Origin: Syntrophales bacterium
Lineage (GTDB): Bacteria; Desulfobacterota; Syntrophia; Syntrophales; Fen-1087
DNA length: 64,000 bases
Direction of reading: 5' to 3'
Assembly: GCA_034678725.1 (NCBI GenBank)
Contig: JAXDBM010000078.1
Coordinates: 5,730 to 69,729 of the forward strand
Shown here in pieces: positions 11,971 through 46,473 of the stretch (position 1 is its first letter; each line of letters opens with the position of its first letter). A model generated the notes under the pieces. The model did not search any database. It had not been told where the DNA came from and saw only the letters and a program-made list of their open reading frames with translations. Position numbers and translations under genes: made by a program.

Positions 11971-12055
11971 TGGATAACCCTTTCAACGGCGTTGTGGGAT
12001 AGCACAGAAGACCCGGAAAGGCAACAAAATACTGAGGACTTCGGAGGTTCCGGGA

Positions 12056-14681: not shown

Positions 14682-16358
14682 ATGCTGAAAGAAAAGACGG
14701 CGACCCGGCTGCGATACCTGCTGCTGTCGCGGGTCGCCATCGTCACGCTGCTGCTGGGTATCGCCATTTTCATGAAGGTCAAGGGCGAGGAGTATCTGCC
14801 CGAGATATCGCTTCGGTCTCTTTCCTGGCTCATTATCACATCCTACATCCTGTCGCTCCTCTATTTTCTTCTCCCCCGCCTGGTACGGAGCATTCAGACA
14901 AATCTCTATATCCAGGCCATCGGCGACGTCCTGCTGGTTACAGGCCTGGTTTATGCGACGGGCGGCATCATCAGCATCTATCCCGTTTTTTACACACTGG
15001 TAATCATCTACTCCGTGTTGTTCCTGGGCAGGCGGGGCGGGCTGATCACCGCCTCCGCGTGCAGCATCGGCTACGGCCTCCTTCTCGATCTGGAGTACTA
15101 CCGGGTTCTGGCCCCGCCCTATTCAACCATGATCCGGGATTACCCGTTCACGGCAAGCTATGTTTTCTCGAAGATCATCACTTATATCGTTTCCTTCTAC
15201 CTGATCGCCTTCCTCGCCATTTTTGTCGTGGAACAGGAAAAGCGGACGAGAACGCTGCTGCGGGAAAAGGAAACCGCGTTCGATCAGCTCGATGTGCTGC
15301 ACCGGAGCATCATCGAGTCCGTCGACACGGGCATCATGACGATCAATCTTCGGGGCCGGATCAAATCCTTCAACCGGGCGGCGCAAGAGATCACCGGCTA
15401 TTCCTTCGACGAAGTCGAAAACAAATATATCGCCGATTTGTTCCCGGCGTACGGACAATTCGTTGCGAAGATTCAGGCGGGGAGCAACCCGGAGCCGGAG
15501 CGAAGCCGGGTGGAAATTCAGATCGAAAGCAGGGAGAAAAAGCCGCTCATTCTGGGCTGCTCCCTTTCCTTTCTGAGCGACGCAGCGGGGAAGCGGATCG
15601 GCAACATCATTGTTTTCCAGGATTTGACGGCCGTCAAGAAAATGGAGGCCAGTGTCGAAAAGAACAGGCGGCTCGCCTTCATCGGCGAAATGGCGGCGGG
15701 CCTCGCCCACGAGATGAGAAACCCCCTGGCGTCGATCGGCGGCTCCATTCAGGTTCTGAACAAAAGCCTCACCCTGAGTCCGGGCGATGAACGCCTCATG
15801 CAGATCATCCTGAGGGGCAAGGATCAGCTTGAGAGCTTCATGCGTGATTTTCTTCTCCTCTCCAGGCCCTCGCCGGGAGTGCCGGAAGCCATCGGAATCG
15901 CGGAGATGATCGAGGAGGTGCTCGAGTCGGTCCGTTACCTGCCGGACTGGCGGGACCGCATCGTGGTCGAGAAGTCTTTCCGGGATCCGGTGCCGCGCAT
16001 TCACGCGAACAAAACGGAAATCCGGCAGCTGATGTGGAACCTCCTTTTGAACGCGGTTCAATCCATGCCGGAAGGCGGCCATCTGCGCGTCGAAGCCGGA
16101 TCGGGCATGGCGGAGGAAGCCTCCGTGACCTGCCTCGAGATCCGGGTCGGGGACAGCGGCCCGGGAATCGCGGAAAAGGATGCGCCCCGGATTTTCGAGC
16201 CCTTTTTTACAACCCGCGAAAAGGGCACGGGAATGGGGCTTGCGATTGTCAACCGGATTGTGGAGAGACATCACGGTAAAATAAAAGTTGACAGCCGGGC
16301 AGGCGAAGGGACGACCTTTACGGTATGGCTCCCCTGCCTGAGGGAAGCGGAGAGGTGA
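14682..16358 (+). CDS. pilS: PilS-like membrane sensor histidine kinase with a PAS domain
   Basis: Multi-TM N-terminus, PAS (SFNRAAQEITG), AHEMRNPL H-box, NLLLNA, DSGPG, FEPFFTT, GTGMGL; adjacent to a sigma54 regulator. Alternative start 14667. Confidence 0.8.
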   Translation: MLKEKTATRLRYLLLSRVAIVTLLLGIAIFMKVKGEEYLPEISLRSLSWLIITSYILSLLYFLLPRLVRSIQTNLYIQAIGDVLLVTGLVYATGGIISIYPVFYTLVIIYSVLFLGRRGGLITASACSIGYGLLLDLEYYRVLAPPYSTMIRDYPFTASYVFSKIITYIVSFYLIAFLAIFVVEQEKRTRTLLREKETAFDQLDVLHRSIIESVDTGIMTINLRGRIKSFNRAAQEITGYSFDEVENKYIADLFPAYGQFVAKIQAGSNPEPERSRVEIQIESREKKPLILGCSLSFLSDAAGKRIGNIIVFQDLTAVKKMEASVEKNRRLAFIGEMAAGLAHEMRNPLASIGGSIQVLNKSLTLSPGDERLMQIILRGKDQLESFMRDFLLLSRPSPGVPEAIGIAEMIEEVLESVRYLPDWRDRIVVEKSFRDPVPRIHANKTEIRQLMWNLLLNAVQSMPEGGHLRVEAGSGMAEEASVTCLEIRVGDSGPGIAEKDAPRIFEPFFTTREKGTGMGLAIVNRIVERHHGKIKVDSRAGEGTTFTVWLPCLREAER

Positions 16359-16360
16359 AA

Positions 16361-17734
16361 ATGGCCAGGATCCTTGTAGTGGACGACGACAAGGGGATGA
16401 GAGAGTTTCTTGAGATTATGCTGGGCAGGGAAGGGTATGATGTCACCGCAACTTTCGACGGGGAAAAGGCCCTCGGCCTTTGCAGGAAAGTTCCCTTTGA
16501 TCTGATCCTGACGGACCTGAAAATGCCCCGGATGGACGGCATCGAGTTCATGAAACGGGCGAAGGATGTCTGCCCCGAAGCCATGATCATCCTGATGACC
16601 GCTTATGCTTCAGGCGAAACGGCCGTTTCCGCCATGAAAGAGGGCGCCTATGATTATATCGAAAAGGATTTCGACATCGAAGACCTGGCGCGTCTGATCC
16701 GGGAGGCGCTGAACAAAAAGGGCGTCAAGAAAAGCGACGCCGAGTTCATGAAGGAACTGGAAGAATCGGTGTCCTTCGGCGGAATGATCGGAAAAAGCAG
16801 GGAAATGCTCAAGGTCTACGCGACCATCAAGAAAATCGCGGGTACCACGGCCAACATTCTGATCCTCGGTGAAAGCGGCACCGGCAAGGAACTGGTGGCC
16901 CGGGCCATCCATGAAAACAGCCCGCGCAACGGGCAGCCCTTTGTCGTCATCAACTGCGGGGGCATACCGGAATCACTCCTCGAATCGGAATTCTTCGGAT
17001 ACATGAAAGGCTCCTTCACGGGGGCCCACACCGACAAGCCCGGTCTGTTCGAGGTGGCGAGCGGCGGCACGATATTCCTGGATGAAATCGGAGATCTTCC
17101 CTCGATCCTGCAGGTAAAGCTTTTGCGCGTCGTGCAGGAAAAAACCTTCCGGCGCATCGGGGGCACGGAGGATATTCGGGTCAATGTCCGGATCATCTCG
17201 GCGACCAATCAGGATCTTTTTACGAAAGTGAGAGAAAACACCTTTCGGGAGGATCTCTACTACCGTCTCAACGTCATTCCGATTCACCTTCCGCCCCTGC
17301 GGGAAAGAAGGGAGGACATTCCCGTCCTGGCAAAGCACTTTATCGAGAAATACTCCCGGGAGTTCGGAAAGGAGATCCGGAACATGTCCGTTTACGCCCT
17401 GGAACTCCTGATGGATTATCCCTTTCCGGGAAATATCCGCGAACTGGCCAACATCATCGAGCGCAGCGTCGCGCTCGAATCCTCCAATATCATTCTTCCG
17501 GAAAACCTCGTCCTGTCGGACAGCCGGGACCCGGCCTTCTCCGTCAGCGATTACCGGTTTCCCGGGGAGGGCGTCGATCTGAACGAGGAGCTGGCCCATA
17601 TCGAGCGGCAATGGATTCGCAGCGCACTCGAAAAAGCGAAAGGGTCCAAGACAAAAGCGGCGGAACTGCTGCACGTCACCGTTGATTCCCTGCGTTACCG
17701 GATTGAAAAGCTGGAGATGGAATCCGGCCCGTAA
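16361..17734 (+). CDS. pilR: PilR-like sigma54-dependent response regulator (REC-AAA+-HTH)
   Basis: VVDDD, TDLKMP, GESGTGKE, GSFTGA, FLDEIG, FREDLYYRLNV, FPGNIREL. Confidence 0.82.
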   Translation: MARILVVDDDKGMREFLEIMLGREGYDVTATFDGEKALGLCRKVPFDLILTDLKMPRMDGIEFMKRAKDVCPEAMIILMTAYASGETAVSAMKEGAYDYIEKDFDIEDLARLIREALNKKGVKKSDAEFMKELEESVSFGGMIGKSREMLKVYATIKKIAGTTANILILGESGTGKELVARAIHENSPRNGQPFVVINCGGIPESLLESEFFGYMKGSFTGAHTDKPGLFEVASGGTIFLDEIGDLPSILQVKLLRVVQEKTFRRIGGTEDIRVNVRIISATNQDLFTKVRENTFREDLYYRLNVIPIHLPPLRERREDIPVLAKHFIEKYSREFGKEIRNMSVYALELLMDYPFPGNIRELANIIERSVALESSNIILPENLVLSDSRDPAFSVSDYRFPGEGVDLNEELAHIERQWIRSALEKAKGSKTKAAELLHVTVDSLRYRIEKLEMESGP

Positions 17735-17742
17735 AATATTTC

Positions 17743-17774
17743 TTGACAACCCCGGCGCTTTGACTCTATAGGAT
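17743..17774 (+). promoter_or_regulatory. sigma70-type promoter of the Phe leader/ABC operon
   Basis: TTGACA at 17743-17748, followed after 18 nt by TATAGGAT. Confidence 0.55.
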
Positions 17775-17792
17775 GACAGAAGGTAAATTAAA

Positions 17793-17882
17793 ATGAAAAG
17801 TCTCGATGTCATGGATCGCCGGTCAGTCCGCTTTTTCGCTTTCTTCAGCTTTTTTAGCGAGGTCTGCCTGCCGCGCTCATGA
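17793..17882 (+). CDS. Phenylalanine-rich attenuator leader peptide (MKSLDVMDRRSVRFFAFFSFFSEVCLPRS)
   Basis: AAGGT RBS at 17780-17784; 6 Phe codons in 8 positions (17832-17855); the stop lies just 3' of the antiterminator 5' arm. Below the ORF-track cutoff. Confidence 0.85.
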   Translation: MKSLDVMDRRSVRFFAFFSFFSEVCLPRS

Positions 17883-17915
17883 CATGAATTGAGCCATGAC
17901 GCCGCGGGCAGACCT
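17860..17915 (+). promoter_or_regulatory. Antiterminator helix of the attenuator (2:3)
   Basis: AGGTCTGCC (17860-68) is the exact complement of GGCAGACCT (17907-15), plus CGCG (17872-75) pairing with CGCG (17903-06); it overlaps the terminator 5' arm. Confidence 0.8.
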
Positions 17916-17939
17916 TTTCGGGCTGCCCGCGGCTTTTTT
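17901..17939 (+). terminator. Attenuator terminator 1 (3:4)
   Basis: Perfect 11-bp stem GCCGCGGGCAG/CTGCCCGCGGC followed by T6. Confidence 0.9.
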
Positions 17940-17942
17940 ATG

Positions 17943-17975
17943 AAGGCCGTGGAATCCGATCCATGGCTTTTTTTT
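17943..17975 (+). terminator. Second tandem terminator (5:6)
   Basis: GCCGTGGA/TCCATGGC stem (one G-U) with a 6-nt loop, followed by T8. Confidence 0.7.
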
Positions 17976-18000
17976 ATCTTTTTTCGAGGAGGACAGGGCG

Positions 18001-19209
18001 ATGACGAAAATGATGAGATGGATGAACGCGATGGGCATGCTGGCCGCGCTGGCCTTTTTCGGCCCGGCCCCTGCTGCGGATGCCGCGGCCATCAAAGTCG
18101 GGGCGGCAATCAACATGACCGGCCCGGCCTCCACCTGGGGCCAGTATCATGCCCGGGGTCAGCAGGATTATTTCCGCTACGTCAACGAGGTCAAGGGCGG
18201 CGTCGCCGGCCGGAAGATCGAGATGATTCTGGTCGACACGGGATACAAGGTCCCGGAAGCCGTCGCGGCCGTGAGGAAGTTTGCCGTGCAGGACCGGGTG
18301 GACATGATCGCCACCTGGGGCGCCGGGGAGGGGCTGGCGGCGAAACCCATCATCCAGAGCTACCGGATTCCCACAATCAATTACTCCACGAGCTGGGAAA
18401 TTCTGGAACCGCCCGTAGATTACATGTATCTCCCCTTCGGCAGCTACCGCATGGATTGCTACGCGGTGATCGATTACATCCGGACCATCCACAAGGGAAA
18501 GGAAGCGCCCAAAATCGGACTGCTGACCTACAACAACGCCTACGGCCGCTCCATTCACCAGCCGACCCGCGATTACGCGGCCAAACAGAAGGTACAGATT
18601 GTCGCAATCGAAGAGTTCCCCCCGAAGACGGTGGACCTGACTACGGAACTGCTGCGGCTCAGGCAGAAGGGCGCTGAATACGTCTTCATGCAGATGCTGC
18701 CCGCCACCATTATCACGACTTTCAAGAGCGCCGACCGGATCGGCTATGCGCCGCAATTCTTCGGGACATGGACCTCCACGGACCCGGACTTTTTCAAGCT
18801 CGGAAAGGGCCTGATCCGGGACCGGCTGAACATGCAGTTCCCCGGCGGTCTGCCCTCGGACAACACGAAGGGAATTGCGCTCATGAAGGAGCTTTGGAAG
18901 CGCTACAAGACGGTTGACCGGTTCGATGCGGCCTACTGGGAGGGCGTCGTCGTCGGCATGATCATGGAACGGGCCTTTGTCCGGGCGCAGGAATCCTTCA
19001 AGCAGGTGAACCGGGAGACGATCAACAAAGCCATGGAGTCGTTCCGGAATGAGGATTTCGGAGGCCTCGTGCCGAACGTCACCTACAGCAGCAAGGACCA
19101 CGGGGCGTCCTTCAAGGCCAGAATGGTCCGGGTGCGTGAGGACGGCTCCCTGGTCCCGCTGACCAACTTCTACACGCCCGGAAAAGAGAAGATCAAACTG
19201 ACAAAGTGA
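18001..19209 (+). CDS. LivK/LivJ-family ABC transporter substrate-binding protein
   Basis: Signal peptide; IKVGAAINMTGPAS, GGVAGRKIE, DTGYKVPEA; GGAGG RBS. Confidence 0.92.
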   Translation: MTKMMRWMNAMGMLAALAFFGPAPAADAAAIKVGAAINMTGPASTWGQYHARGQQDYFRYVNEVKGGVAGRKIEMILVDTGYKVPEAVAAVRKFAVQDRVDMIATWGAGEGLAAKPIIQSYRIPTINYSTSWEILEPPVDYMYLPFGSYRMDCYAVIDYIRTIHKGKEAPKIGLLTYNNAYGRSIHQPTRDYAAKQKVQIVAIEEFPPKTVDLTTELLRLRQKGAEYVFMQMLPATIITTFKSADRIGYAPQFFGTWTSTDPDFFKLGKGLIRDRLNMQFPGGLPSDNTKGIALMKELWKRYKTVDRFDAAYWEGVVVGMIMERAFVRAQESFKQVNRETINKAMESFRNEDFGGLVPNVTYSSKDHGASFKARMVRVREDGSLVPLTNFYTPGKEKIKLTK

Positions 19210-19222
19210 GACGGAAAATCCG

Positions 19223-20050
19223 ATGAAGTCACAGCGCAGCAGGCCGGGCATCTTCAGCGCGCGGAGTCGGGAAGATGCCCGGGCCGAACTGGACATTTCG
19301 AAGCTGTCCCTGCATTTCGGCGGCGTCCGGGCGCTGCACGACATCGATCTGGCCGTGCGCACCGGTGAGCTGGTCGCGGTGATCGGTCCGAACGGCGCGG
19401 GCAAGACCAGCCTGCTGAACTGCATGACCGGTTTCTACTGGCCGCAGCAGGGCAGCATCCGTTTCAACGGCCGGGACATCACCCATCTGCCGTCCCACGA
19501 GCTGGTGCGGATCGGCATCGGGCGGACCTTTCAGAACATCGAGCTTTTTCCGGGCATGACGGTGCTGTCGAACATGCTGCTGGCGAGGCACATCCACTGC
19601 CGCTGCGGCCTGGGCGCCGCGGCGCTCTTTGCATCCTCCGCCCGGAAAGAGGAGATCCGGCACCGGCTCGTCCTGGAAGAGGTGATCGATTTTCTGGAGA
19701 TGCAGGCGATCCGCAAGAAAACGGTCGGATCGCTTCCCTACGGCCTGATGAAACGGGTCGAACTCGGACGCGCCCTGGCGCTGGAGCCGAAGCTCCTCGT
19801 CCTCGACGAGCCCTTTGCCGGCATGAACCTCGAAGAAAAGGAGGACATGGTCCGGTTTCTCATCGAGCTCAACGAGGCCTGGGGCCAGACCATGATCCTG
19901 GTGGAGCATGACATGTCCATTGTCATGAGCATCTCCCAGCGGATCATGGTCCTGAATTTCGGCGAGAAGCTGGCGGAGGGAACGCCCGAAGAAGTGCGGA
20001 ACCACCCGGAGGTGATCAAGGCCTACCTGGGTGACGCGGAATCCCTTTGA
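19223..20050 (+). CDS. LivG-type ABC ATP-binding protein
   Basis: FGGVRAL, GPNGAGKT, RTFQN, LPYG, LDEP, HPEVIKAYLG. Confidence 0.93.
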   Translation: MKSQRSRPGIFSARSREDARAELDISKLSLHFGGVRALHDIDLAVRTGELVAVIGPNGAGKTSLLNCMTGFYWPQQGSIRFNGRDITHLPSHELVRIGIGRTFQNIELFPGMTVLSNMLLARHIHCRCGLGAAALFASSARKEEIRHRLVLEEVIDFLEMQAIRKKTVGSLPYGLMKRVELGRALALEPKLLVLDEPFAGMNLEEKEDMVRFLIELNEAWGQTMILVEHDMSIVMSISQRIMVLNFGEKLAEGTPEEVRNHPEVIKAYLGDAESL

Positions 20051-20061
20051 AGAGGGCAGCG

Positions 20062-21966
20062 ATGACGGCGAATCCGGCAGAAAAAACACTTCCCCAGGTC
20101 CTGGCCCTGCAGGCCGAGCGCCTGGGCGCCGCGACGGCAATCCGCGAGAAGGCCCTCGGCATCTGGCAGCGATACTCCTGGGCGGACTATTTCCGCTACG
20201 TGAGGCATGTGGCCGCCGGCCTGATGTCACTCGGGCTGAAGCGCTGCGAACATGTCGGCCTCATCCTGAACAACCATCCGGAGTGGCTCTTCAGTGAACT
20301 GGGGGCCCAGTCTCTGGGCGCCGTGACGCTGAATCTGTTCACCTCCTCGATCACTGACGAGCTGTGCCTGGCCCTCAACCGGATTCAGGCGGCCTTTGTC
20401 TTCGTCCAGGACCAGGAACAGGTCGACAAGCTCCTGGACGCCCGCGACAGGCTCGCGCATGTCCGCCGCGTGATCTACATCGACCCCACCGGAATGCGGA
20501 CCTACGGGAGCGAGCCCTGGCTGATCGGATTCAGCGAGCTGGTCCGAATGGGAGAGGCGCTCGAACGGGAACACCCGGATCGCGTCCTGCAGGAGATTCA
20601 TAAGGGCGGCCGGGGCGACACCGCCCTCATGATCCTCACTTCCGGAACGACCGGGCTGCCCAAACTCGCCATGCTATCGCACCGGAACCTGACAGCCATC
20701 GCCGAGAGCTGGGTCGAGGCCATGGCCATTCAAGAGGGCGAAAACTGGATCTCCATGTCGCCGCCCGCCTGGATCGTGGACCAGATGTGGGGTGTCGGGG
20801 TCGCCCTGGTCGGCGGAATGACGATGAACTTTCCCGAAACTCCGGAGACCGTCACGGAGGATTTCCGTGAAATCGGTCCGTCCCTGCTCATCACCGCCTC
20901 CCGGTTCTGGGAGGACCTCGCTTCCCGGATCATGGTGAAGATGTCCGATGTGGGGATGGTCAAGCGGAAAATGTTCGGCCTCGCCGAGCGGATCGGCCGC
21001 AGGGTCGCAGAAAAGGAAACCCGGGGAGAAGCCGTCCCTTCCTCCCTGAAAGCCCTCCACCGGCTCGCTTCTCTGACGGTTTACCGGCCGCTGCTCGACC
21101 GGATCGGCTGCCTGAAGCTGCGCAGCGCATTCACCGGCGGCCATCCCATCAGCCCGGATGTGATCGGCTTTTTCAGAACCATCGGACTCAATCTCAAGCA
21201 GTGTTACGGTCTGACCGAAGCCGGCGGCATTTTTCAGATCCAGCCGGACGATCAGGTGAAGCTGGAGACCGTGGGCAAGCCCCTGCCGGGGACCCTCGTC
21301 CGGCTTTCGGAAGACCAGGAGGTCCTGGTGCGCAGCGACGCCGTGTTCGCCGGCTATTATCAGGACTTCAAGTCGACGGAGGCCGCATTCGCCGACGGCT
21401 GGCTGCGAACGGGCGACGCCGGCTATCTGGACCGGGACGGCCATCTGCTGATCATCGGGCGCAAGGAGGAAATTATCCGCAACAAGAGCGGGGAGGCCTT
21501 TTCACCGGACTTCATCGAAACCCGCCTGAAGTTCAGCCCCTACATCAAGGAGGCAGTGGTTTTCGGCGAGGGGCGCCCCTTCCTCACGCTGATGGTCAAC
21601 ATCGATTTCGGAAACGTCGGCGTCTGGGCGGAGGAGCGGATGATCCCTTATACGACCTACATGGACCTGTCCCAGCAACCGGCCGTGGAAGAGCTGATTC
21701 TGGGCGAGATTCAGCGGATCAACGCGCAACTGCCGGACATCATGAAAATCCGGAAGTTCTTCCTCCTCTACAAGCTTCTGGACGCCGACGACGAGGAGTT
21801 GACCCGCACCGGCAAGGTGAGGCGGCGCTTTGTCTACGGCCTTTACATCAAGCTGATCGAGGCCATGTACCGGGACCAGTGGGAGGTCGAGGTCAAGGCG
21901 AAGGTCCAGTACCGGGACGGACAGGTCGGCAAGGTGGAAACCAAGGTGAAAATCATACCGGTTTAA
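20062..21966 (+). CDS. AMP-dependent acyl-CoA synthetase (long-chain fatty acid-CoA ligase family)
   Basis: TSGTTGLPK, YGLTE, TVGKP, WLRTGD, IIGRKEE, ELTRTGKVRR. Confidence 0.92.
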   Translation: MTANPAEKTLPQVLALQAERLGAATAIREKALGIWQRYSWADYFRYVRHVAAGLMSLGLKRCEHVGLILNNHPEWLFSELGAQSLGAVTLNLFTSSITDELCLALNRIQAAFVFVQDQEQVDKLLDARDRLAHVRRVIYIDPTGMRTYGSEPWLIGFSELVRMGEALEREHPDRVLQEIHKGGRGDTALMILTSGTTGLPKLAMLSHRNLTAIAESWVEAMAIQEGENWISMSPPAWIVDQMWGVGVALVGGMTMNFPETPETVTEDFREIGPSLLITASRFWEDLASRIMVKMSDVGMVKRKMFGLAERIGRRVAEKETRGEAVPSSLKALHRLASLTVYRPLLDRIGCLKLRSAFTGGHPISPDVIGFFRTIGLNLKQCYGLTEAGGIFQIQPDDQVKLETVGKPLPGTLVRLSEDQEVLVRSDAVFAGYYQDFKSTEAAFADGWLRTGDAGYLDRDGHLLIIGRKEEIIRNKSGEAFSPDFIETRLKFSPYIKEAVVFGEGRPFLTLMVNIDFGNVGVWAEERMIPYTTYMDLSQQPAVEELILGEIQRINAQLPDIMKIRKFFLLYKLLDADDEELTRTGKVRRRFVYGLYIKLIEAMYRDQWEVEVKAKVQYRDGQVGKVETKVKIIPV

Positions 21967-21979
21967 GGAGATTTTTCGA

Positions 21980-22858
21980 ATGGACTTTTTCGTTCAACTG
22001 CTCGTCAACGGCATCAGCATCGGTCTGCTCTACGGCCTGTCCGCGATGGGCTTCGTCATGATCTTCAAATCGTCCAGCGTCCTGAATTTCGCCCACGGGG
22101 AACTCCTCGCCTTCGGGGCTTTTCTGTTCCTGGCCATGGTCTCCTGGGCCGGACTGCCCCTGCCGGTGGCCTTTCTGGTAACGCTGGCCGGCTGTTTCTC
22201 GCTGGGGTTCCTCGTGGAGCGCGTCTTCCTGCGCCCCCTCATCGGCGAACCCCTGATTTTCGTGATCATGCTGACCGTCGGCCTGGCCTCGATGTTCAAG
22301 GGGCTGCTCCTGCTGGTGTGGGGCGGCAACCTCCAGACCTATCCGGACTTTCTGCCGGAGGCGCTCGGCATCCGCTGGGGCGCCATCCAGGTTCCGCCCG
22401 TCTACGTGGCCGCGCTGTTCATCGGGATGATCTTTCTGTGCCTGTTCGGCCTGTTCTTCAAATACTCCTCCCAAGGCATCTACATGCGCTCGGTGGCGGA
22501 CAACCAGAAAGCCGCCCTTTCCCTGGGGGTCCACGTCAAACGGGTCTTCGCGCTCTCCTGGGCCATCGCCGCACTGGTGGCCGGAATGAGCGGCATCGTT
22601 CTGGGCATCATCAATGGCATCAACGTGCACGACCTGAGCGCCATCGGCCTCAAGGTCTTCCCTGTGGTGATCCTGGGCGGGCTGGATTCCATTGGCGGAG
22701 CCATCATCGGAGGCATTATCATCGGCCTGCTGGAGACCTTCACGGGCGGCTACCTGTCGCCATCACTCCGCGATGTGGTTCCCTACATCGTCCTGGTGCT
22801 GATTCTGCTGGTGAAACCCTACGGCCTCTTCGGCCTGAAAGAGATCGAGCGGGTGTGA
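21980..22858 (+). CDS. LivH-type ABC permease
   Basis: NGISIGLLYGL, VLNFAHG, SVADN..AALSLG, LGGLDSI. Confidence 0.93.
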   Translation: MDFFVQLLVNGISIGLLYGLSAMGFVMIFKSSSVLNFAHGELLAFGAFLFLAMVSWAGLPLPVAFLVTLAGCFSLGFLVERVFLRPLIGEPLIFVIMLTVGLASMFKGLLLLVWGGNLQTYPDFLPEALGIRWGAIQVPPVYVAALFIGMIFLCLFGLFFKYSSQGIYMRSVADNQKAALSLGVHVKRVFALSWAIAALVAGMSGIVLGIINGINVHDLSAIGLKVFPVVILGGLDSIGGAIIGGIIIGLLETFTGGYLSPSLRDVVPYIVLVLILLVKPYGLFGLKEIERV

Positions 22859-22860
22859 AC

Positions 22861-23931
22861 ATGCGAAAACCGAGATTCCACCCTTGCGGAAATTACCGGG
22901 AAGACTACCGGGAAGAGCTGACGGTCTTCGAGACGGACTTCGGCCGCCTCTGGCTGGGCATCGGCCTTGCCTTCCTGTTTCTGGTTCTGCCCTGGGTCGT
23001 GACACCCTACATGGTCTACGTTCTGAACATGATCGGCATTGCCGCGATTGCCGCGATCGGCCTGAACATTCTGATCGGATACACCGGACAGATCTCTCTC
23101 GGTCACGGCGCCTTTTTCGGCGTCGGCGCCTACGCGGCGGGAATCCTGGCCACTTCGGCGGATCTGCCCTTCGTCCTGGTCGTGCCGGCCGCCGCCGCCG
23201 TGACGTCTCTGGTGGGGATGATCTTCGGGATTCCCTCAGTCCGCCTGAAGGGCCTCTACCTGACCATTGCCACCCTGGCCGGACAGTTCATCGTGGAGTA
23301 CATCCTGCTGCACTGGGAAGGTTTGACAAAGGGCACGATGGGGATCACGCTGCCGAAGGCCTCCCTGCTCGGATGGGAGATGGGCGGCGACCGGGGCTTC
23401 TTCTTCGTCATCTTCATCTGCCTGATCGGAATGACCTGGCTTGCGGTCAACCTCATCCGCACGAAGTACGGCAGGGCTTTCATCGCGATCCGGGACAACG
23501 ACCGGGCGGCCGAGGGAATGGGCATCCCCATCTTCCGCTACAAGCTGCTTTCCTTTGCCATCAGCTCCTTCTACGCCGGATTTGCCGGCGCCCTCTGGGC
23601 GTATTACATGGTGAGCATCACCACGGAGCCTTTCAACCTCGGCCTTTCCGTCGAATACATCGCCATGGTGATCATCGGCGGAATGGGAAATATCTCCGGC
23701 TCGATCTTCGGCGCCGTCTTCATCACCGGCCTGAACGAACTGCTGCGCTGGGCGACGGACGCGCTGATGAACATGGGGGTGTTCACAAGCACCGGCCTGA
23801 ACATGGCGCCGCTTCGCGAATTCGCCTTCGGAGCCGCGATCGTGCTTTTCATTCTCTTCGAACCCCGGGGGCTGGCGGAGGTTTGGCGGATCGTCCGCTC
23901 GAGCTTCCGGCTCTGGCCTTTTTCATACTGA
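22861..23931 (+). CDS. LivM-type ABC permease
   Basis: GLNILIGYTGQISLGHG, GRAFIAIRDND.AA..MGI, YKLLSF. Confidence 0.93.
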   Translation: MRKPRFHPCGNYREDYREELTVFETDFGRLWLGIGLAFLFLVLPWVVTPYMVYVLNMIGIAAIAAIGLNILIGYTGQISLGHGAFFGVGAYAAGILATSADLPFVLVVPAAAAVTSLVGMIFGIPSVRLKGLYLTIATLAGQFIVEYILLHWEGLTKGTMGITLPKASLLGWEMGGDRGFFFVIFICLIGMTWLAVNLIRTKYGRAFIAIRDNDRAAEGMGIPIFRYKLLSFAISSFYAGFAGALWAYYMVSITTEPFNLGLSVEYIAMVIIGGMGNISGSIFGAVFITGLNELLRWATDALMNMGVFTSTGLNMAPLREFAFGAAIVLFILFEPRGLAEVWRIVRSSFRLWPFSY

Positions 23932-23943
23932 AGGAGTCTGGCG

Positions 23944-24744
23944 ATGCGGGATGTCCTGCTGCAGGTGAATAACATATCCGTCGTTTATTCCGACGTCATC
24001 CAGGTCCTCAAGGGGGTGTCCCTGGCGGTGGAAAGGAAACACATCGTTTCGCTGCTTGGCAGTAATGGCGCCGGCAAGACGACGACGCTGAAGGCCATTT
24101 CCGGACTGCTCAAACCTGAAAACGGCGAGGTGACGGACGGCTCGATCCTCCACAGCGGCAAACCCATCCACAACCAGCCTCCCGAGACCATCACCCGGCT
24201 GGGCATCATTCAGGTCCTCGAGGGCCGCCAGCCGTTCAAGTACCTGACCATCGAAGAGAACCTGAGGGTGGGGACGGCCACCCGCTGGGGCAAGGCCTAC
24301 AAGGAGGACCTGGAGCTGGTGTACGGATATTTTCCCGCCCTGCTGAAACGAAGGAAAGCGTTGGCCGGCTACTGCAGCGGCGGAGAGCTGCAGATGCTCG
24401 TGATCGGCCGTGCCCTGATGGCCCACCCGCAGCTTCTCCTGCTGGATGAGCCGTCGCTGGGTCTGGCGCCGCTGGTCGTCAGCGAAATCTTTCGGATCAT
24501 TCGGCGGATCAACGAAGAGCAGGGGACGACCATTGTCCTCGTCGAGCAGAACGCCCGCATGGCCCTTCAGATCGCCCACTACGGGTACGTGATGGAAAAC
24601 GGCAAGATCGTCATGGAGGGCCCGGCTGAAGACCTGGTTGAAAATCCCGATATCAAGGAATTCTACCTGGGCATGGCCGCCTCCGGCGCCGCAAAATCCT
24701 ACCGGGACGTCAAATCCTACCGGCGCCGCAAGCGCTGGCTGTGA
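23944..24744 (+). CDS. LivF-type ABC ATP-binding protein
   Basis: GSNGAGKTT, SGGELQM, LDEPSLGLAP, VEQNA. Confidence 0.93.
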   Translation: MRDVLLQVNNISVVYSDVIQVLKGVSLAVERKHIVSLLGSNGAGKTTTLKAISGLLKPENGEVTDGSILHSGKPIHNQPPETITRLGIIQVLEGRQPFKYLTIEENLRVGTATRWGKAYKEDLELVYGYFPALLKRRKALAGYCSGGELQMLVIGRALMAHPQLLLLDEPSLGLAPLVVSEIFRIIRRINEEQGTTIVLVEQNARMALQIAHYGYVMENGKIVMEGPAEDLVENPDIKEFYLGMAASGAAKSYRDVKSYRRRKRWL

Positions 24745-24891
24745 CGATGAACAAATCATTCAACGAACCGTAACATTTTATTCAAATCCCGGGCCTTCCG
24801 AACCATCCGCTTCTTTCTCCATCCATCCTTCAAAAAATAAATAACCAGTAATATCAATATGATATAAAATATATTCCCGGGGCATCCCTTT

Positions 24892-24908
24892 TTGGCACGT
24901 TTATTTCA
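24892..24908 (+). promoter_or_regulatory. Candidate sigma54 promoter with a non-canonical -12 element
   Basis: TTGGCACG-TTTA-TTTCA (GG-N10-TC instead of GC), preceded by an AT-rich tract with an IHF-like TATCAATATGATA. Confidence 0.35.
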
Positions 24909-24962
24909 TATCTATCTGTTAAAAGAAACAATCAAACACCCAGACAAAGGAGGAAATAGATC

Positions 24963-25238
24963 ATGAAAAAGAATCTCGCAACCCTGGTGATGGCAGCGGC
25001 GGTGGTTTTGATCACGGCAGGTTTCAGCTTCGCGGAATATACTGCGGGCGGTGCGGACAACTTCCCTTATTTTCAGCTTGGGTGCCTGATCATCGGCGGG
25101 CTCATCATGATGTCCCTGAAATACAAGTACAACAAGATCTACACCAGCGAAGTCGTCGGCGCCTTCGCCCTCTACACACTCTACATCTCTCTGTTCACCT
25201 CGCCGGTGCTGGAAGCCGTGAAAAACTGGCTGAGCTGA
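24963..25238 (+). CDS. Small membrane protein (signal peptide + 2 TM), unknown function
   Basis: Strong AAAGGAGG RBS; cleavable-type signal peptide ending in SFA; own terminator downstream. Confidence 0.8.
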   Translation: MKKNLATLVMAAAVVLITAGFSFAEYTAGGADNFPYFQLGCLIIGGLIMMSLKYKYNKIYTSEVVGAFALYTLYISLFTSPVLEAVKNWLS

Positions 25239-25273
25239 AAAAACCGCGTGATAATCAGAAACCCGGAATCCGC

Positions 25274-25301
25274 GAAGGCGGGGGCATCCCCCGCCTTCTT
25301 T
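25274..25301 (+). terminator. Intrinsic terminator
   Basis: GAAGGCGGGGG/CCCCCGCCTTC 11-bp stem followed by TTT. Confidence 0.75.
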
Positions 25302-25487
25302 GTCATCCCTTCTTTTTGAAGCCATCGCCCAACCTGCCAGCGATATTTCCGGATCCGCTTTGCTCGTTTCTCGCTCCAGTACATTCCTATCAATTCACTT
25401 CACGCTCACCGATTGTTTGAACCCTGTCGCCAGACATTCCACATCCGCCTGCGGGGCTAATTTGTGCGGGCCGGAATTTGAAATCCA

Positions 25488-25516
25488 TTGACACGAACCG
25501 ATCTTCTTTTTATACT
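25488..25516 (+). promoter_or_regulatory. Near-consensus sigma70 promoter of the CoA-transferase gene
   Basis: TTGACA-N17-TATACT. Confidence 0.7.
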
Positions 25517-25560
25517 CTAGCGCCTGAATGCCGGTTTCTGTCGAAGGCGGTGTCTTATCG

Positions 25561-25578
25561 TGAGCGGATTTCCGCTCA
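25561..25578. promoter_or_regulatory. Perfect palindrome, candidate operator
   Basis: TGAGCGGA-TT-TCCGCTCA, about 40 nt downstream of the predicted TSS. Confidence 0.5.
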
Positions 25579-25788
25579 TCATGCACGTTAAACATCCAAC
25601 CGATTCATAACCGAAAGAACAAAGACTCAGAAAGGGAAGGGGGTGAACAGAACGAGCGTTCGAGCGGCTTTTCCGGTGAACCGGACGCAGGGCAGCTTCT
25701 GTTGGGATTGAGATTGCGTCCCGCTTCCTCGTCGCCGCGGAAAGCCGAAAGGGGTGTCTTTTTTGACGCAGGAAAAAAGGAGGGGAGA

Positions 25789-27120
25789 ATGAGTTGGAAA
25801 GAGATTTATCAGAGCAGGTTGATGTCCGCCCAGGATGCCGCAAAGATCATCCAGTCCGGAGACCGTTTCTGGACGCCGCTGTGTCTGGGACAGCCGTCCA
25901 TGCTGATCATGGACCTGATCGCCGACCGGGTCGATGAGCTCAAGGACGTCGAGTACATGAATGCACTCACGCTGCGGCCATACAAAATCTTCAAACCGGA
26001 GTACCGGAAAACCTTCAGTGTGGTATTTGGATTCTACAGCTCTCCCCATTTACAGCAGATCGCAAAAAGCGAGTGGGCCAACTTCATCCCGGCCCAGAGC
26101 TCCGACGTGTCCCTGAAAAACGCGGCCCGGAACCGAGCATACCCCCGCCGGACCGGAATCATCACACAGGTCACGCCGCCGGACAGCCACGGCTATGTCA
26201 GCCTCGGCCTCGATACTTTCTACACCGGCCGCATCATGGACCAGAGCGATTTCATCATTGCCGAGGTAAACGACCAGATGCCCCGCACCTACGGGGACAC
26301 GAACTTTCATGTCTCCCGCTTCACCGCTTTCTTCGAGAATTCCAGCCCACTGCCGGCCGTGCCGACACCGCCAGCGTCGGACGTGGAAATCCAGATGGCG
26401 AAAAACGTCGTCGGCCTGATGAAGGACCGGGACTGCTTCCAGGTAGGCATCGGAGCGATCCCGGCCATGATCAGCAAGCTCCTCCAGGACAGCAATCTGA
26501 AGGACCTGGGCATTCACACGGAGATGGCGCCGGCGGGGACCAATATCCTCGTGGATAAGGGGATCGTCACCTGCAAACACAAGAAGGTCAATCCCGGCAA
26601 GATCCTCCTGGCCTTCACCATGGGCGACAAAGAACTCTACGAGTGGCTGGCCAACAATCCCATGTGCGAGTGGCGTTCCACGCTTTACGCCAACAACATC
26701 AGCATCATCTCCCAGGAGGAGAATCTCGTGGCCATCAACGGCTCCCTGGAAGTGGACCTGACGGGGCAGATCTGCTCCGAGTCGCATGGCAACATCATGC
26801 GGACGGGCACCGGAGGGCAGCTCGACTTCGTCATCGGCGCTTTCTGGTCTCCCGGGGGGAGAGCGATCAACCTCGTTCCTTCGACCGCCCTGGACGACAG
26901 CGTCTCCCGCATCGTTCCCTATCTGTCCAACGGTGCCCGGGTGACCGTGCCCCGCCACTACGCCCAGTACATCGTCACCGAGTACGGCGTCGCCGACCTC
27001 ACCGGCAGGACGGAGCCGGAGCGAGCCGAGGCCCTCATCCAGATTGCCCATCCCAAGTTCCGGGAAGAGCTGGAGAAGGGCGCAAGGGAGCGGGGCCTTC
27101 TTAGGAAAAAAACATTCTGA
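25789..27120 (+). CDS. Acetyl-CoA hydrolase/CoA-transferase family protein (4-hydroxybutyrate CoA-transferase-like)
   Basis: FQVGIGAIP, GIHTEM, INGSLEVDLTGQICSES, GTGGQLDF, IVTEYGVADL, LIQIAHPKFR; GGAGG RBS. Confidence 0.92.
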   Translation: MSWKEIYQSRLMSAQDAAKIIQSGDRFWTPLCLGQPSMLIMDLIADRVDELKDVEYMNALTLRPYKIFKPEYRKTFSVVFGFYSSPHLQQIAKSEWANFIPAQSSDVSLKNAARNRAYPRRTGIITQVTPPDSHGYVSLGLDTFYTGRIMDQSDFIIAEVNDQMPRTYGDTNFHVSRFTAFFENSSPLPAVPTPPASDVEIQMAKNVVGLMKDRDCFQVGIGAIPAMISKLLQDSNLKDLGIHTEMAPAGTNILVDKGIVTCKHKKVNPGKILLAFTMGDKELYEWLANNPMCEWRSTLYANNISIISQEENLVAINGSLEVDLTGQICSESHGNIMRTGTGGQLDFVIGAFWSPGGRAINLVPSTALDDSVSRIVPYLSNGARVTVPRHYAQYIVTEYGVADLTGRTEPERAEALIQIAHPKFREELEKGARERGLLRKKTF

Positions 27121-44096: not shown

Positions 44097-45902
44097 ATGT
44101 CTGTTTTGATGTCTGGAAACGAGGCGATCGCCAGAGGCGCCTACGAGTGCGGGGTGCGTTTCGCATCCGGGTATCCGGGGACCCCCAGCACGGAGATCAT
44201 GGAGGCTTTCGCCCGATACGACGGCGTCTATGCCGAATGGGCCCCCAACGAAAAGGTGGCCCTGGAGGTGGGCATCGGCGCCGCGCTGGCCGGCGCAAAG
44301 GCCCTGGTCACCATGAAGCACGTGGGGGTCAACGTGGCGGCCGATCCTCTGTTCACGGCCAGCTACACGGGCACGAACGGGGCCCTGGTGATCATATCGG
44401 CGGACGACCCTTCCCTGCACAGTTCGCAGAACGAGCAGGACAACCGGAATTACGCGAAATTCGCCAAAGTTCCCATGCTGGAACCGGCCGATTCGGACGA
44501 GGCAAAGCGGTTCGTCAAGCTGGCCTTCGAGATCAGCGAAAAATTCGACACGCCGGTTTTCCTGCGGCCCACGACGCGCGTCGCCCATTCCAAGTCCGTC
44601 GTCGAAACCGAAGCGCCGAAGGCGGTGGAGGACCGGACGGCCATTCAAATCAACGCCGCCAAATACGTCATGGTCCCCATCAATGCCCGCGCGCGCCGGT
44701 TGGAGGTCGAAAAGCGGACGCTCGCGCTTCGGGAATTCGCCGAGACCTTTTCCGAAAACCGGATGGAGATCAACGGCACGGAGGTCGGAATCATCACGGC
44801 GGGCATCCCCTATCATTACGCCAAGGATGTCTTTCCCGAATATTCCTACCTGAAGCTCGGCATGGTCCACCCCTTGCCGGTCCGGATGATCCGTGAATTC
44901 GCGTCCCGGGTGAAAAAGCTCTACGTGGTCGAGGAACTTGACCCCTTCATCGAGGAGCAGGTCCGGGCCATGGGCATCGCCGTCACCGGAAAGGAGGTCT
45001 TTCCCTACACCAACGAATTCGATCCCGGCGTGATTGAAAAGGCCATCCGCGGCGAGGCCGGGAAACCGCTGAGCCTGCATGCCATTGCCATCCCGCCGCG
45101 GCCGCCCAACCTCTGTCCGGGCTGCCCCCATCGCGGGCTCTTTTATGTCCTGGGAAAAATGAAGGCCTTCGTGACGGGCGACATCGGCTGCTATACGCTG
45201 TCCTACATGAAGCCGCTGGAAGGCCTGCATTCCTGCGTCTGCATGGGGGCCAGCATCGGCATGGCCCACGGCATGAGCAAGGCGCTGAAGGAGAAGGGAA
45301 AGGGAAAAGTGGTAGGGGTGATCGGCGACTCGACCTTCATTCATTCCGGAATCACGCCGCTGCTGAACCTGGCCTACAACAAGGGCGATGCCGTCATCGT
45401 CATCGCGGACAACCGGACCACGGCCATGACGGGCATGCAGGAGCATCCGGCAACCGGCTTCACCCTTCAGGGTGAGCAGACCGGCCAATTGAATTTTGCG
45501 GAACTGGCCTCCACCCTGGGCATCAAAAGCGTCCGCACCATCGACCCCTACGACATCAAACAGACGCGGACCGTCATGAAAGAGGAACTGGCCAGACCGG
45601 GTGCGTCGGTAGTGATTTCCAACCGGTCCTGCGTCCTGTTCAAGAGGCACCAGACGGGACCGCAGAAACCCCTTCGCGTCGATCCCGCAAAGTGCATCGG
45701 ATGCAAGGTCTGCCTCGGCCTCGGCTGCCCGCCGATTTCCTGGAGGAAGTTCGAGGACATGCCGGAAAGCGAGATCCGCAAGAACGCAAAGAAACAGGAG
45801 GGCCATTCCGTCATTGATCGGAGTCTCTGCAACGGCTGCACGGTATGTCAGCAGCTCTGCAAGGCCGGCGCCATCGGAGAGGAGGATAACGCTCATGAAT
45901 GA
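44097..45902 (+). CDS. iorA: Indolepyruvate:ferredoxin oxidoreductase alpha subunit
   Basis: SGNEAIARG, GYPGTPSTE, NEKVALE, MKHVG, HSSQNEQD, PNLCPGCPHR, GDIGCY, GDSTF.HSG, C-terminal 2x[4Fe-4S]. Confidence 0.96.
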   Translation: MSVLMSGNEAIARGAYECGVRFASGYPGTPSTEIMEAFARYDGVYAEWAPNEKVALEVGIGAALAGAKALVTMKHVGVNVAADPLFTASYTGTNGALVIISADDPSLHSSQNEQDNRNYAKFAKVPMLEPADSDEAKRFVKLAFEISEKFDTPVFLRPTTRVAHSKSVVETEAPKAVEDRTAIQINAAKYVMVPINARARRLEVEKRTLALREFAETFSENRMEINGTEVGIITAGIPYHYAKDVFPEYSYLKLGMVHPLPVRMIREFASRVKKLYVVEELDPFIEEQVRAMGIAVTGKEVFPYTNEFDPGVIEKAIRGEAGKPLSLHAIAIPPRPPNLCPGCPHRGLFYVLGKMKAFVTGDIGCYTLSYMKPLEGLHSCVCMGASIGMAHGMSKALKEKGKGKVVGVIGDSTFIHSGITPLLNLAYNKGDAVIVIADNRTTAMTGMQEHPATGFTLQGEQTGQLNFAELASTLGIKSVRTIDPYDIKQTRTVMKEELARPGASVVISNRSCVLFKRHQTGPQKPLRVDPAKCIGCKVCLGLGCPPISWRKFEDMPESEIRKNAKKQEGHSVIDRSLCNGCTVCQQLCKAGAIGEEDNAHE

Positions 45903-46473
45903 CGAGGTTAGAAGCATACTTTTAGCCGGCGTCGGCGGCCAGGGCATCCTGCGGGCGAGCGACATCCTCTGCCTGGCCTTTATGGAATCCGGCCTGGATG
46001 TCAAGAAAAGCGAGGTGCACGGCATGGCCCAGCGGGGCGGCTGCGTCACCAGCCATGTCCGGTACGGGCGCAGGGTTCACTCGCCGATTGCGAAGAAGGG
46101 CGATGTGGACATCCTGGTGTCCTTTGAAAAGCTCGAGGCCCTGCGCTACCTGGACTATCTGAAGCCGGATGCATCGATCATCATCAATGAAGAGGAGATC
46201 TACCCGCCGTCGGTCAATCTCGGCGACGCGAAATACCCCGAACATATCGATGAAATGATCCGCCGCCACTTCAGGACGGTCAAAATGGTTGACGGCCCGG
46301 GGATTGCCCGCGCGGCCGGAAACAGCAGGGCCGTCAACACGGCTCTGCTGGGCGTCTTGGCCAACTTCCTCAGTATTCAGAGCGCTGTCTGGGAAAAGGT
46401 CCTGCGGGAGGCTTTTCCGGAGAAGGCGCTGAAGGCAAACCTGGAGGCCTTCCGTCTTGGCCGGTCAGCCTGA
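45895..46473 (+). CDS. iorB: Indolepyruvate:ferredoxin oxidoreductase beta subunit
   Basis: GVGGQG, SEVHGMAQRGG, FEKLEALR, N.ALLG. Confidence 0.95.
   Translation: MNDEVRSILLAGVGGQGILRASDILCLAFMESGLDVKKSEVHGMAQRGGCVTSHVRYGRRVHSPIAKKGDVDILVSFEKLEALRYLDYLKPDASIIINEEEIYPPSVNLGDAKYPEHIDEMIRRHFRTVKMVDGPGIARAAGNSRAVNTALLGVLANFLSIQSAVWEKVLREAFPEKALKANLEAFRLGRSA

Follow-up and report, generated by a model that had tools for sequence, protein, structure and literature searches.

The window analysed here is a 64,000-nucleotide stretch of contig C78 (JAXDBM010000078.1), part of a 2.56-Mb, 98-contig metagenome-assembled genome (MAG) of a Syntrophales bacterium, and the subject of this report is a six-gene operon within it in which an ATP-binding cassette (ABC) importer encloses the gene for an acyl-CoA ligase. 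All six genes lie on the forward strand. They encode, in order, a substrate-binding protein of 402 residues with a signal peptide (18001..19209; Peripla_BP_6, PF13458, E 8.6e-53), a LivG-type ABC ATPase with a BCA_ABC_TP_C tail (19223..20050), an AMP-forming acyl-CoA ligase of the fatty acyl-CoA synthetase (FACS)/FadD type (20047..21966; a 639-residue open reading frame (ORF) that gene callers start at 20062, which gives 634 residues), a LivH-type permease (21980..22858), a LivM-type permease of 356 residues (22861..23931; PF02653 on the called product) and a LivF-type ABC ATPase (23944..24744), which is the last operon gene in this genome. LivG, LivH and LivF are assigned by family match. A first-pass annotation, made from the letters and their ORFs, had described this gene order behind a phenylalanine (Phe) attenuator, and all of these elements lie at or very near the positions it gave. 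One correction concerns LivM: its true frame is that of the ORF at 22318-23931, and the ORF at 22884-23972 is a wrong-frame artefact with no Pfam match.

Together these genes provide the complete parts of a hydrophobic amino acid uptake transporter (HAAT; TC 3.A.1.4): a binding protein of the Peripla_BP_6/ANF_receptor type, two BPD_transp_2 permeases, LivG and LivF. The transporter subunits all score below the NCBIfam cut-offs for the E. coli equivalogs and therefore count as members of the family and not as orthologues of LivHMGF. A single orthologue of the binding protein, at 68-94% identity, occurs in 158 of the 201 sampled Syntrophales genomes and in 53 of 65 genera. When a library is clustered at 50% identity, this protein stands as a family apart, with the next relatives at 40% and 31-34%. 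The order binding protein-LivG-ligase-LivH-LivM-LivF is the same at all 20 loci with long flanks, which represent about ten Syntrophales families (a contig end truncates one of the loci), and between these loci the embedded ligase shares 63-92% identity. Elsewhere in the window genome, a paralogous ligase-bearing LIV module lies on contig C13, and contig C71 (13885-18693) carries a canonical LivJ/K orthologue, at 36-37% identity to E. coli, with LivM, LivG and LivF after it. No leader was found ahead of either.

Upstream of the binding-protein gene, also on the forward strand, a leader ORF of 29 codons, MKSLDVMDRRSVRFFAFFSFFSEVCLPRS (17793..17882), carries the run FFAFFSFF, with six Phe in eight codons. 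It is preceded by a sigma-70-like promoter region (17743..17789) that is a consensus match only (TTGACA-N18-TATAGG; the scan also marks TTGACT-N18-TAAATT). The RNA that follows can pair in two mutually exclusive ways (17855..17939). Segment A (17855-17871), which overlaps the final leader codons, pairs with segment B (17901-17915) as an antiterminator; alternatively, B pairs with C in the GC-rich hairpin of terminator 1 (17905-17939), whose T-run ends at 17939. A second intrinsic terminator, with a 12-bp stem and T8, follows at 17942..17975. The fold z-score of the leader region is -3.55. By sequence, both hallmarks of an attenuator are present, namely a run of Phe codons and a terminator that competes with an antiterminator reaching into the end of the ORF.

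Across Syntrophales, the Phe run is kept in a form like FFxFFxFF, followed by (E/G)VC(L/P)xxS, and the N-terminus of the leader varies freely. Leaders with at least four Phe in eight codons are found at 29 of 30 loci and at 63 of 66 species-representative loci, and two of the three sub-threshold leaders remain rich in F/Y (L100; on inspection, L120/L134). Because only the Phe/Tyr run and the RNA-pairing codons are kept and the rest is free, an attenuator is expected here, not a functional peptide. We read this conserved anatomy as the probable signature of a working Phe or Phe/Tyr attenuator. Tyrosine (Tyr) codons also occur in about a fifth of the leaders (11 of 50, Smithella-type). Mixed Tyr/Phe leaders such as YYSFYFFSF are found at the Smithella-type loci L110, L113, L114, L116, L121, L124 and L129, and in these lineages Phe and Tyr may both control the operon. 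Whether a leader contains Tyr codons does not significantly predict the presence of the PaaK-like gene described below (9/11 versus 23/39, p = 0.29). In MAGs labelled Syntrophus aciditrophicus (SulCav), at L132 (7435-7855) and L104, the Phe run has been lost from the upstream ORF with the operon intact, and attenuation may have decayed in this lineage.

A genome-wide scan of intergenic ORFs identified the leader before this operon as the sole convincing Phe leader of the 2.56-Mb genome. Candidates on contigs C12, C19 and C22 were rejected, as a terminator or a sensible target gene was missing. The lack of any other credible Phe leader genome-wide indicates that the Phe switch is specific to this operon. 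Rfam searches that covered the window, the surroundings of the leader and six outgroup loci matched no family, and no T-box either; with the Phe_leader covariance model, the stretch 17700-18050 yielded nothing at the gathering score, nor at E <= 10. The region nevertheless resembles the enterobacterial pheL-pheA and pheM-pheST attenuators in combining a short Phe-run ORF with exclusive antiterminator and terminator hairpins, and in a predicted read-through upon stalled translation. It differs from them in the absence of sequence or covariance-model similarity, in its three-segment design with an additional terminator, and in its target, which is an uptake/ligase operon instead of a biosynthetic or tRNA-synthetase gene.

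The embedded ligase contains AMP-binding (PF00501, E 2.9e-60) and AMP-binding_C_3 domains. The motifs TSGTTGxPK, YGLTE, TGD and GRKEEII and the region of the C-terminal catalytic Lys are invariant or consensus in its alignment (A1), and by this motif test it is an AMP-forming acyl-CoA synthetase of the ANL superfamily. It is not a PaaK, as it reaches no equivalog score with TIGR02155 and contains no AMP-binding_C_2 domain.

A PaaK-family gene is, however, a frequent partner of the operon in other Syntrophales. At 37 of 59 species loci (counted among L060-L138), a gene for 414-423 residues with AMP-binding and AMP-binding_C_2 domains lies 14-234 nucleotides past LivF, and such a seventh gene also directly follows LivF in L043, L046, L048, L050-L053, L055, L056 and L058. 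It has ribosome-binding sites, and there is usually no terminator between LivF and the PaaK-like gene. The best solved relatives of its product are phenylacetate-CoA ligases (4R1L, 2Y4O and 2Y27; E 1e-46 to 1e-49), and its scores (180-242 bits) lie below the equivalog cut-offs (646-700 bits). The seventh gene is missing from the window, where neither the gene nor a remnant was found past LivF (24745-25700), and from the family f1 to which the window genome belongs; f1 either lost it or never acquired it. For this genome, the predicted link to aryl acids thus rests on orthology to operons that bear the PaaK-like gene. In L055, an AT-rich insertion of about 0.9 kb with a small HNH-like ORF separates LivF from the PaaK-like gene (oriented ~11190-12115).

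The window genome does encode two PaaK-family ligases elsewhere, each followed by an ACT-domain gene (C53, 1246-3073, TIGR02155 627 bits; C12, 21948-23721, TIGR02155 474 bits). These ACT partners suggest that the activation of arylacetates is controlled in an amino-acid-sensitive way. The seventh-gene product of the relatives shares only 30-32% identity with these paralogues, and 40-42% with the product of the terminal gene in modules found in Azospirillum and at loci L139 and L140.

These modules place the operon in a wider family. A profile search of genome contigs with the ligase alignment returned 79 loci, all of them Syntrophales among the matches listed, and a metagenome search with the PaaK-like alignment reached other phyla. 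A PaaK-family gene ends the module in L139, in L140 (a sporulating Firmicute), on plasmids of Deinococcus taeanensis and Azospirillum brasilense Sp7, and on about 30 metagenome contigs; in L139 it is followed by a CBS-ACT gene. The Deinococcus and Azospirillum modules share seven gene families with the Syntrophales operon, and the closest solved structure to its binding protein (3LKB, from Thermus) belongs to the same type of module. In these modules, however, the binding protein comes after LivM, in the order LivG-FACS ligase-LivH-LivM-binding protein-LivF-PaaK-like, the modules are not known to carry a Phe leader, and their hosts are aerobes with no evident use for reductive carboxylation. 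The unit of ABC importer and embedded ligase is ancient and comes in at least two flavours, one associated with beta-oxidation genes and one with the PaaK-like gene, and the Syntrophales operon belongs to the PaaK-like flavour.

The window also encodes an indolepyruvate:ferredoxin oxidoreductase (IOR). IorA (44097..45902, forward strand; not an operon member) scores 677.2 bits with TIGR03336, above the cut-off of 650.9, and the gene for IorB (45895..46473, forward strand; 192 residues; PF01558, a POR gamma-type domain) overlaps iorA. The first-pass annotation was right to place iorAB at 44097-46473 and to state that no paaK follows, the next gene being dnaJ-like. The distance of roughly 20 kb between the operon and iorAB carries no weight as evidence: the spacing is 20-30 kb in most genomes and reflects conserved backbone synteny among housekeeping genes (recJ, recG, hom and dnaE), and we rejected it as a functional cluster.

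A different kind of link emerges from the distribution of the two across genomes. IorA (above ~633 bits) is found in 65 of 68 high-quality genomes that bear the operon and is intact in 21 of 43 that do not (Fisher p = 1e-8 by genome and 0.006 by family, with kinship ignored). It is present in all 14 sampled operon-bearing families and absent from four of the seven families that are entirely without the operon. Both the operon and an IorA of the window's type are missing from family f21 (seven genomes, of which three are closed), and one of its members retains an iorA pseudogene with an internal TAA (closed genome G074, C1, 2540964-2542520). We further note a second IorA/IorB-like pair in the window genome (C21, 3239-5970), which scores 573 bits, below the cut-off, and has a C-terminal ferredoxin domain. 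Pairs of this C21 type persist in Syntrophales families without the operon and without the window-type IorA.

One cluster outside Syntrophales joins all of these parts. On the metagenome contig L145 (2-11209), the genes run in the order IorA (C-terminal part)-IorB-aminotransferase-thioesterase-hydrolase-FACS ligase-LivH-LivM-binding protein-LivF-PaaK-like; they are co-directional and partly overlapping, with LivG convergent and a GYD-domain gene divergent. The aminotransferase is of the PRK06836 type (571 bits against a cut-off of 376), and the thioesterase is PaaI-like, with TIGR02286 as its best match (94.7 against 118.9 bits). The same cluster, with a full-length IorA, is found on a 307-kb contig (L226, 1801-13381) whose binding protein is 70% identical to that of L145, and L225 has the thioesterase-ligase-transporter-PaaK-like portion without IorAB. 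Homologues of the L145 binding protein bear the source names Chloroflexi, Dehalococcoidia and Dehalococcoidales. Because an importer with AMP-forming ligases implies a flow from acid to CoA ester, its placement beside an IOR and a transaminase suggests a conversion of arylacetate to amino acid. The clustering of all parts in L145 and L226 thus supports an aryl-acid pathway, without proving it. The window genome encodes a 52% orthologue of the Dehalococcoidia-cluster aminotransferase on contig C70 (37235-38413), a candidate for the corresponding step. There is some resemblance to the paa pathway, in that the seventh gene of the relatives belongs to the PaaK family and the Dehalococcoidia thioesterase best matches PaaI (TIGR02286), but both genes fall below the equivalog cut-offs, no paaABCDE ring-oxygenase genes are found here and the window is without the seventh gene.

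The binding protein offers a further indication of the substrate. Its AlphaFold2 model (predicted local distance difference test score, pLDDT, 91.6) has a two-lobe fold, and the top PDB matches are all cluster-B binding proteins. In LivJ, the residues that anchor the alpha-carboxylate and alpha-ammonium groups of the ligand are, in the numbering of the LivJ structures, S79, T102, Y202 and E226. In an alignment at ~20% identity, these positions are replaced in the operon's binding protein (S79 by A, T102 by S, Y202 by L and E226 by W), and Tyr202 and Glu226, the ammonium anchor, are lost in every binding protein of a ligase-bearing module that was examined. LivK retains the anchors, as does the canonical orthologue on C71, with Y18, S79, T102, Y150 and Y202 unchanged and Asp in place of Glu226. 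The loss of the LivJ anchors argues for a ligand without an alpha-ammonium group, and by these residues the binding protein appears to lie outside the LivJ/K amino-acid-binding group.

Published screening found aromatic acids, fatty acids or dicarboxylates to be the usual ligands of COG0683 proteins that carry a Leu/Ile/Val-binder annotation (PMC3223731). In the HAAT systems of Rhodopseudomonas palustris (the HbaE region, CouP/RPA1789, RPA0668 and RPA0985; Giuliani et al. 2011, PMC3223731), COG0683 proteins bind aromatic carboxylates instead of branched-chain amino acids, and the transporter genes adjoin genes for aryl-CoA ligases. The R. palustris aromatic-acid binders, including a complex with 3-phenylpyruvate, match our model at template-modelling (TM) scores of 0.73-0.77. 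We rejected the fold search as a guide to ligand class, as all cluster-B binding proteins score TM 0.7-0.83. The R. palustris systems also differ from the present one in being catabolic and substrate-induced, with ligases of the BadA/CouB type outside the transporter operon, whereas the present operon encloses a ligase of the FACS type and is predicted to be induced by amino-acid starvation.

From the observed anatomy, conservation, gene neighbourhoods and co-occurrence, we propose, with a probability of about 0.6, that the operon serves the Phe-starvation-induced uptake and CoA activation of a phenylacetate-type acid, which would feed IOR for the salvage of Phe. Control by Phe starvation would, in our reading, be sensible only for an operon that supplies Phe. 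When charged tRNA-Phe is scarce, the ribosome would stall at the first Phe codons of FFAFFSFF, segment A would stay free and pair with B, no terminator would form and the operon would be transcribed. When Phe is replete, the ribosome would reach the stop codon and cover A, leaving B free to form the B:C terminator. These steps are taken from the classical model of attenuation together with the conserved anatomy. The binding protein would capture an aryl carboxylic acid, most likely phenylacetate (and perhaps also 4-hydroxyphenylacetate in lineages with Tyr codons in the leader), the LivHM/GF translocator would import it, and the embedded AMP-forming ligase would trap it as a CoA thioester. The PaaK-family ligase encoded after LivF may assist in most relatives, and one of the two PaaK and ACT pairs could do so here. 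IorAB, with reduced ferredoxin, would then carboxylate phenylacetyl-CoA reductively to phenylpyruvate, and a class-I aminotransferase, possibly the candidate on C70, would convert this to Phe. The logic of an aryl-acid uptake and activation system, which the first-pass annotation had put forward, survived every computational test that was run; the identity of the substrate, along with the specificities of the ligase and the enzymes and the direction of IOR, is what we infer from sequence.

The proposed chemistry, from arylacetate to arylacetyl-CoA, by IOR to arylpyruvate and by transamination to the amino acid, is the same as in the aryl-acid route to aromatic amino acids of Methanococcus maripaludis (Porat 2004) and rumen bacteria (Allison 1965), both as cited in PMC4162585 and PMC7356843. 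That anaerobes can turn phenylacetate into phenylalanine was recognised as early as the 1960s, and genetic evidence for it comes from a methanogen. The present genome resembles these organisms in having a TIGR03336-type IOR alongside a probable de novo pathway. It differs from them in that an ABC importer with a built-in ligase is found under a Phe attenuator, and in that the reductive direction of IOR is a prediction here. We know of no transporter, dedicated ligase or amino-acid-sensing control that has been assigned to the M. maripaludis/rumen route.

Several observations weigh against this proposal. No leader was found ahead of iorAB, a check that the first-pass annotation had called for, which means that there is no co-regulation with the operon by this route. 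The same annotation had asked for a search for pheA, and prephenate dehydratase is indeed present in this genome and in 181 of 201 relatives; de novo synthesis of Phe is therefore probable, and a salvage route would be auxiliary. The embedded ligase is FACS/FadD-like, with FadD11 as the top NCBIfam match at 276 bits, far short of the cut-off of 950. It had been seen as a stand-in for a missing paaK, but with two PaaK and ACT pairs already in the genome this role falls away, and the proposal offers no reason for having two or three ligases. The nearest outgroups of the binding protein (L036 and L038, at 41% and 33%) lie beside TetR and electron-transfer flavoprotein (ETF) genes, and a third (L142, ~30%) lies beside TetR and thiolase genes, all of which are beta-oxidation contexts. 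The co-occurrence test takes no account of phylogeny and is weak in this respect, and the argument from anchor residues is fragile, as it is drawn from alignments at 20-30% identity. This last point is made sharper by 3LKB (Thermus thermophilus; TM 0.83, 26-30% identity), which shares 63% identity with the binding protein found in the Deinococcus module of this type and is titled 'with bound valine': it lacks the LivJ anchors and yet holds valine. It could be that this class binds amino acids in a manner unlike LivJ, or that the co-purified ligand of 3LKB is a 2-oxo or 2-hydroxy look-alike. Taken against these points, the proposal draws its support from the PaaK-family seventh gene, the Dehalococcoidia fusion, the co-occurrence and co-loss with IorA and the lost anchors.

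The main rival to aryl-acid salvage is that the operon imports Phe itself (L-Phe, and L-Tyr in Smithella-type lineages) as a starvation-induced high-affinity system, with the ligases as baggage or in some other role. This is the simplest reading of the regulatory logic, and HAAT systems can carry Phe, as the E. coli LivJ/LivK-HMGF system is annotated as a branched-chain amino acid/phenylalanine transporter; the valine deposited with 3LKB, from the same module type, points the same way, unless, as we suggest above, it is a look-alike. The comparison with E. coli LIV-I/LS (LivJ/LivK-LivHMGF, TC 3.A.1.4) extends to the transporter architecture and to the annotated transport of Phe by LIV-I, but the E. 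coli operon is without a ligase, the binding proteins are only ~20% identical, a Phe leader is found here and the true LivJ/K orthologue is encoded separately, on C71. That orthologue keeps the alpha-amino anchors that the operon's own binding protein lacks. Direct import further gives no role to the one or two ligases that are fixed in position at 63-92% identity throughout the order and that recur in the corresponding module of other phyla, and it explains neither the dependence on IorA nor the fusion, in Dehalococcoidia, to IorAB, an aminotransferase and a PaaI-like thioesterase. We therefore regard it as unlikely, while holding it to be the strongest competitor.

Distinctly less probable is the import of another Phe-related acid, such as phenyllactate, phenylpyruvate, cinnamate or 3-phenylpropionate, that would reach phenylpyruvate without IOR, for example by a reversed phenyllactate/cinnamoyl-CoA pathway. 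In Desulfococcus multivorans, 3-phenylpropionate and even phenylacetate are activated by FadD-type ligases (PMC5109826), the solved relatives of the PaaK-like partner include a 2-hydroxyisobutyryl-CoA synthetase, and crystal structures show HAAT binding proteins in complex with 3-phenylpyruvate and with p-coumarate. However, phenylpyruvate and phenyllactate need no CoA activation on the way to Phe, no phenyllactyl-CoA dehydratase turned up beside the operon (no search aimed at one was made), and both the specific make-up of the Dehalococcoidia fusion and the tracking of IorA by the operon point to IOR.

Finally, a generic system for the uptake and activation of fatty or organic acids for catabolism, in which the Phe-rich ORF would be a small hydrophobic peptide or a general translation-coupled switch, fits the FACS-type ligase, the second structural match (the fatty-acid binding protein 4N03), the TetR, ETF and thiolase genes beside the nearest outgroup modules and the habits of Syntrophales, which degrade fatty acids and aromatic acids, but it is very improbable given a leader that keeps only its Phe/Tyr run and RNA-pairing codons together with a terminator and antiterminator, a binding protein whose 68-94% identity across the order suggests one fixed ligand, the PaaK-like and IOR links, and the finding of no beta-oxidation genes at the Syntrophales locus.

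A literature search (3LKB, 4N03, phenylacetate ABC transporter, and Syntrophus with phenylalanine) returned no description of a system like the one proposed here for the salvage of Phe from aryl acids. Its parts are of known kinds, and the combination of an attenuator, a ligase-bearing importer and IOR is undescribed in the literature searched. If the proposal is true, one operon would supply the transporter, the activation step and the control of the salvage pathway in ~80% of Syntrophales, with a sister cluster in Dehalococcoidia, and an attenuator of the biosynthetic type would govern a salvage importer. Energy-limited syntrophs and subsurface bacteria would cut the cost of aromatic amino acids through recycled fermentation end-products, with a bearing on cross-feeding in digesters, sediments and guts. 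Thousands of genes now named 'branched-chain amino acid ABC transporter' or 'long-chain fatty acid-CoA ligase' would have to be renamed.

A broader version of this idea is tentative. It is conceivable, though doubtful, that HAAT modules with a FACS-type ligase and a PaaK-like partner serve a general salvage of amino-acid carbon skeletons, taking up the acids that correspond to decarboxylated amino acids (arylacetates, and possibly branched-chain acids) and handing them on as CoA esters. Strict anaerobes such as Syntrophales and Dehalococcoidia would feed these esters to 2-oxoacid:ferredoxin oxidoreductases running in reverse, and the module would be a de facto amino-acid biosynthetic operon, wired to starvation sensors in one case or fused to IorAB and an aminotransferase in the other. 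Energy-starved syntrophs would in this way swap their most expensive biosynthetic pathway for about two ATP equivalents per Phe.

The genes that flank the operon complete the picture of the locus. Directly upstream of the leader (14682-17734), the window encodes a histidine kinase that is PilS-like (6TM_PilS/PAS), together with a response regulator of the sigma-54 type, and the synteny of this pair holds at 10-12 or more out of 20 Syntrophales loci. Ahead of the leader itself, no promoter of the sigma-54 type can be seen. Downstream, LivF and an AT-rich spacer are followed by a gene with a good ribosome-binding site for a predicted membrane protein of 91 residues, which has no family match (24963-25238). 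A strong terminator with an 11-bp stem (25274-25298) closes this gene. From 25702-27120 onward lie a gene of the acetyl-CoA hydrolase/transferase family (PF13336) and a major facilitator superfamily (MFS) transporter gene, which are found at this position in this genus only.

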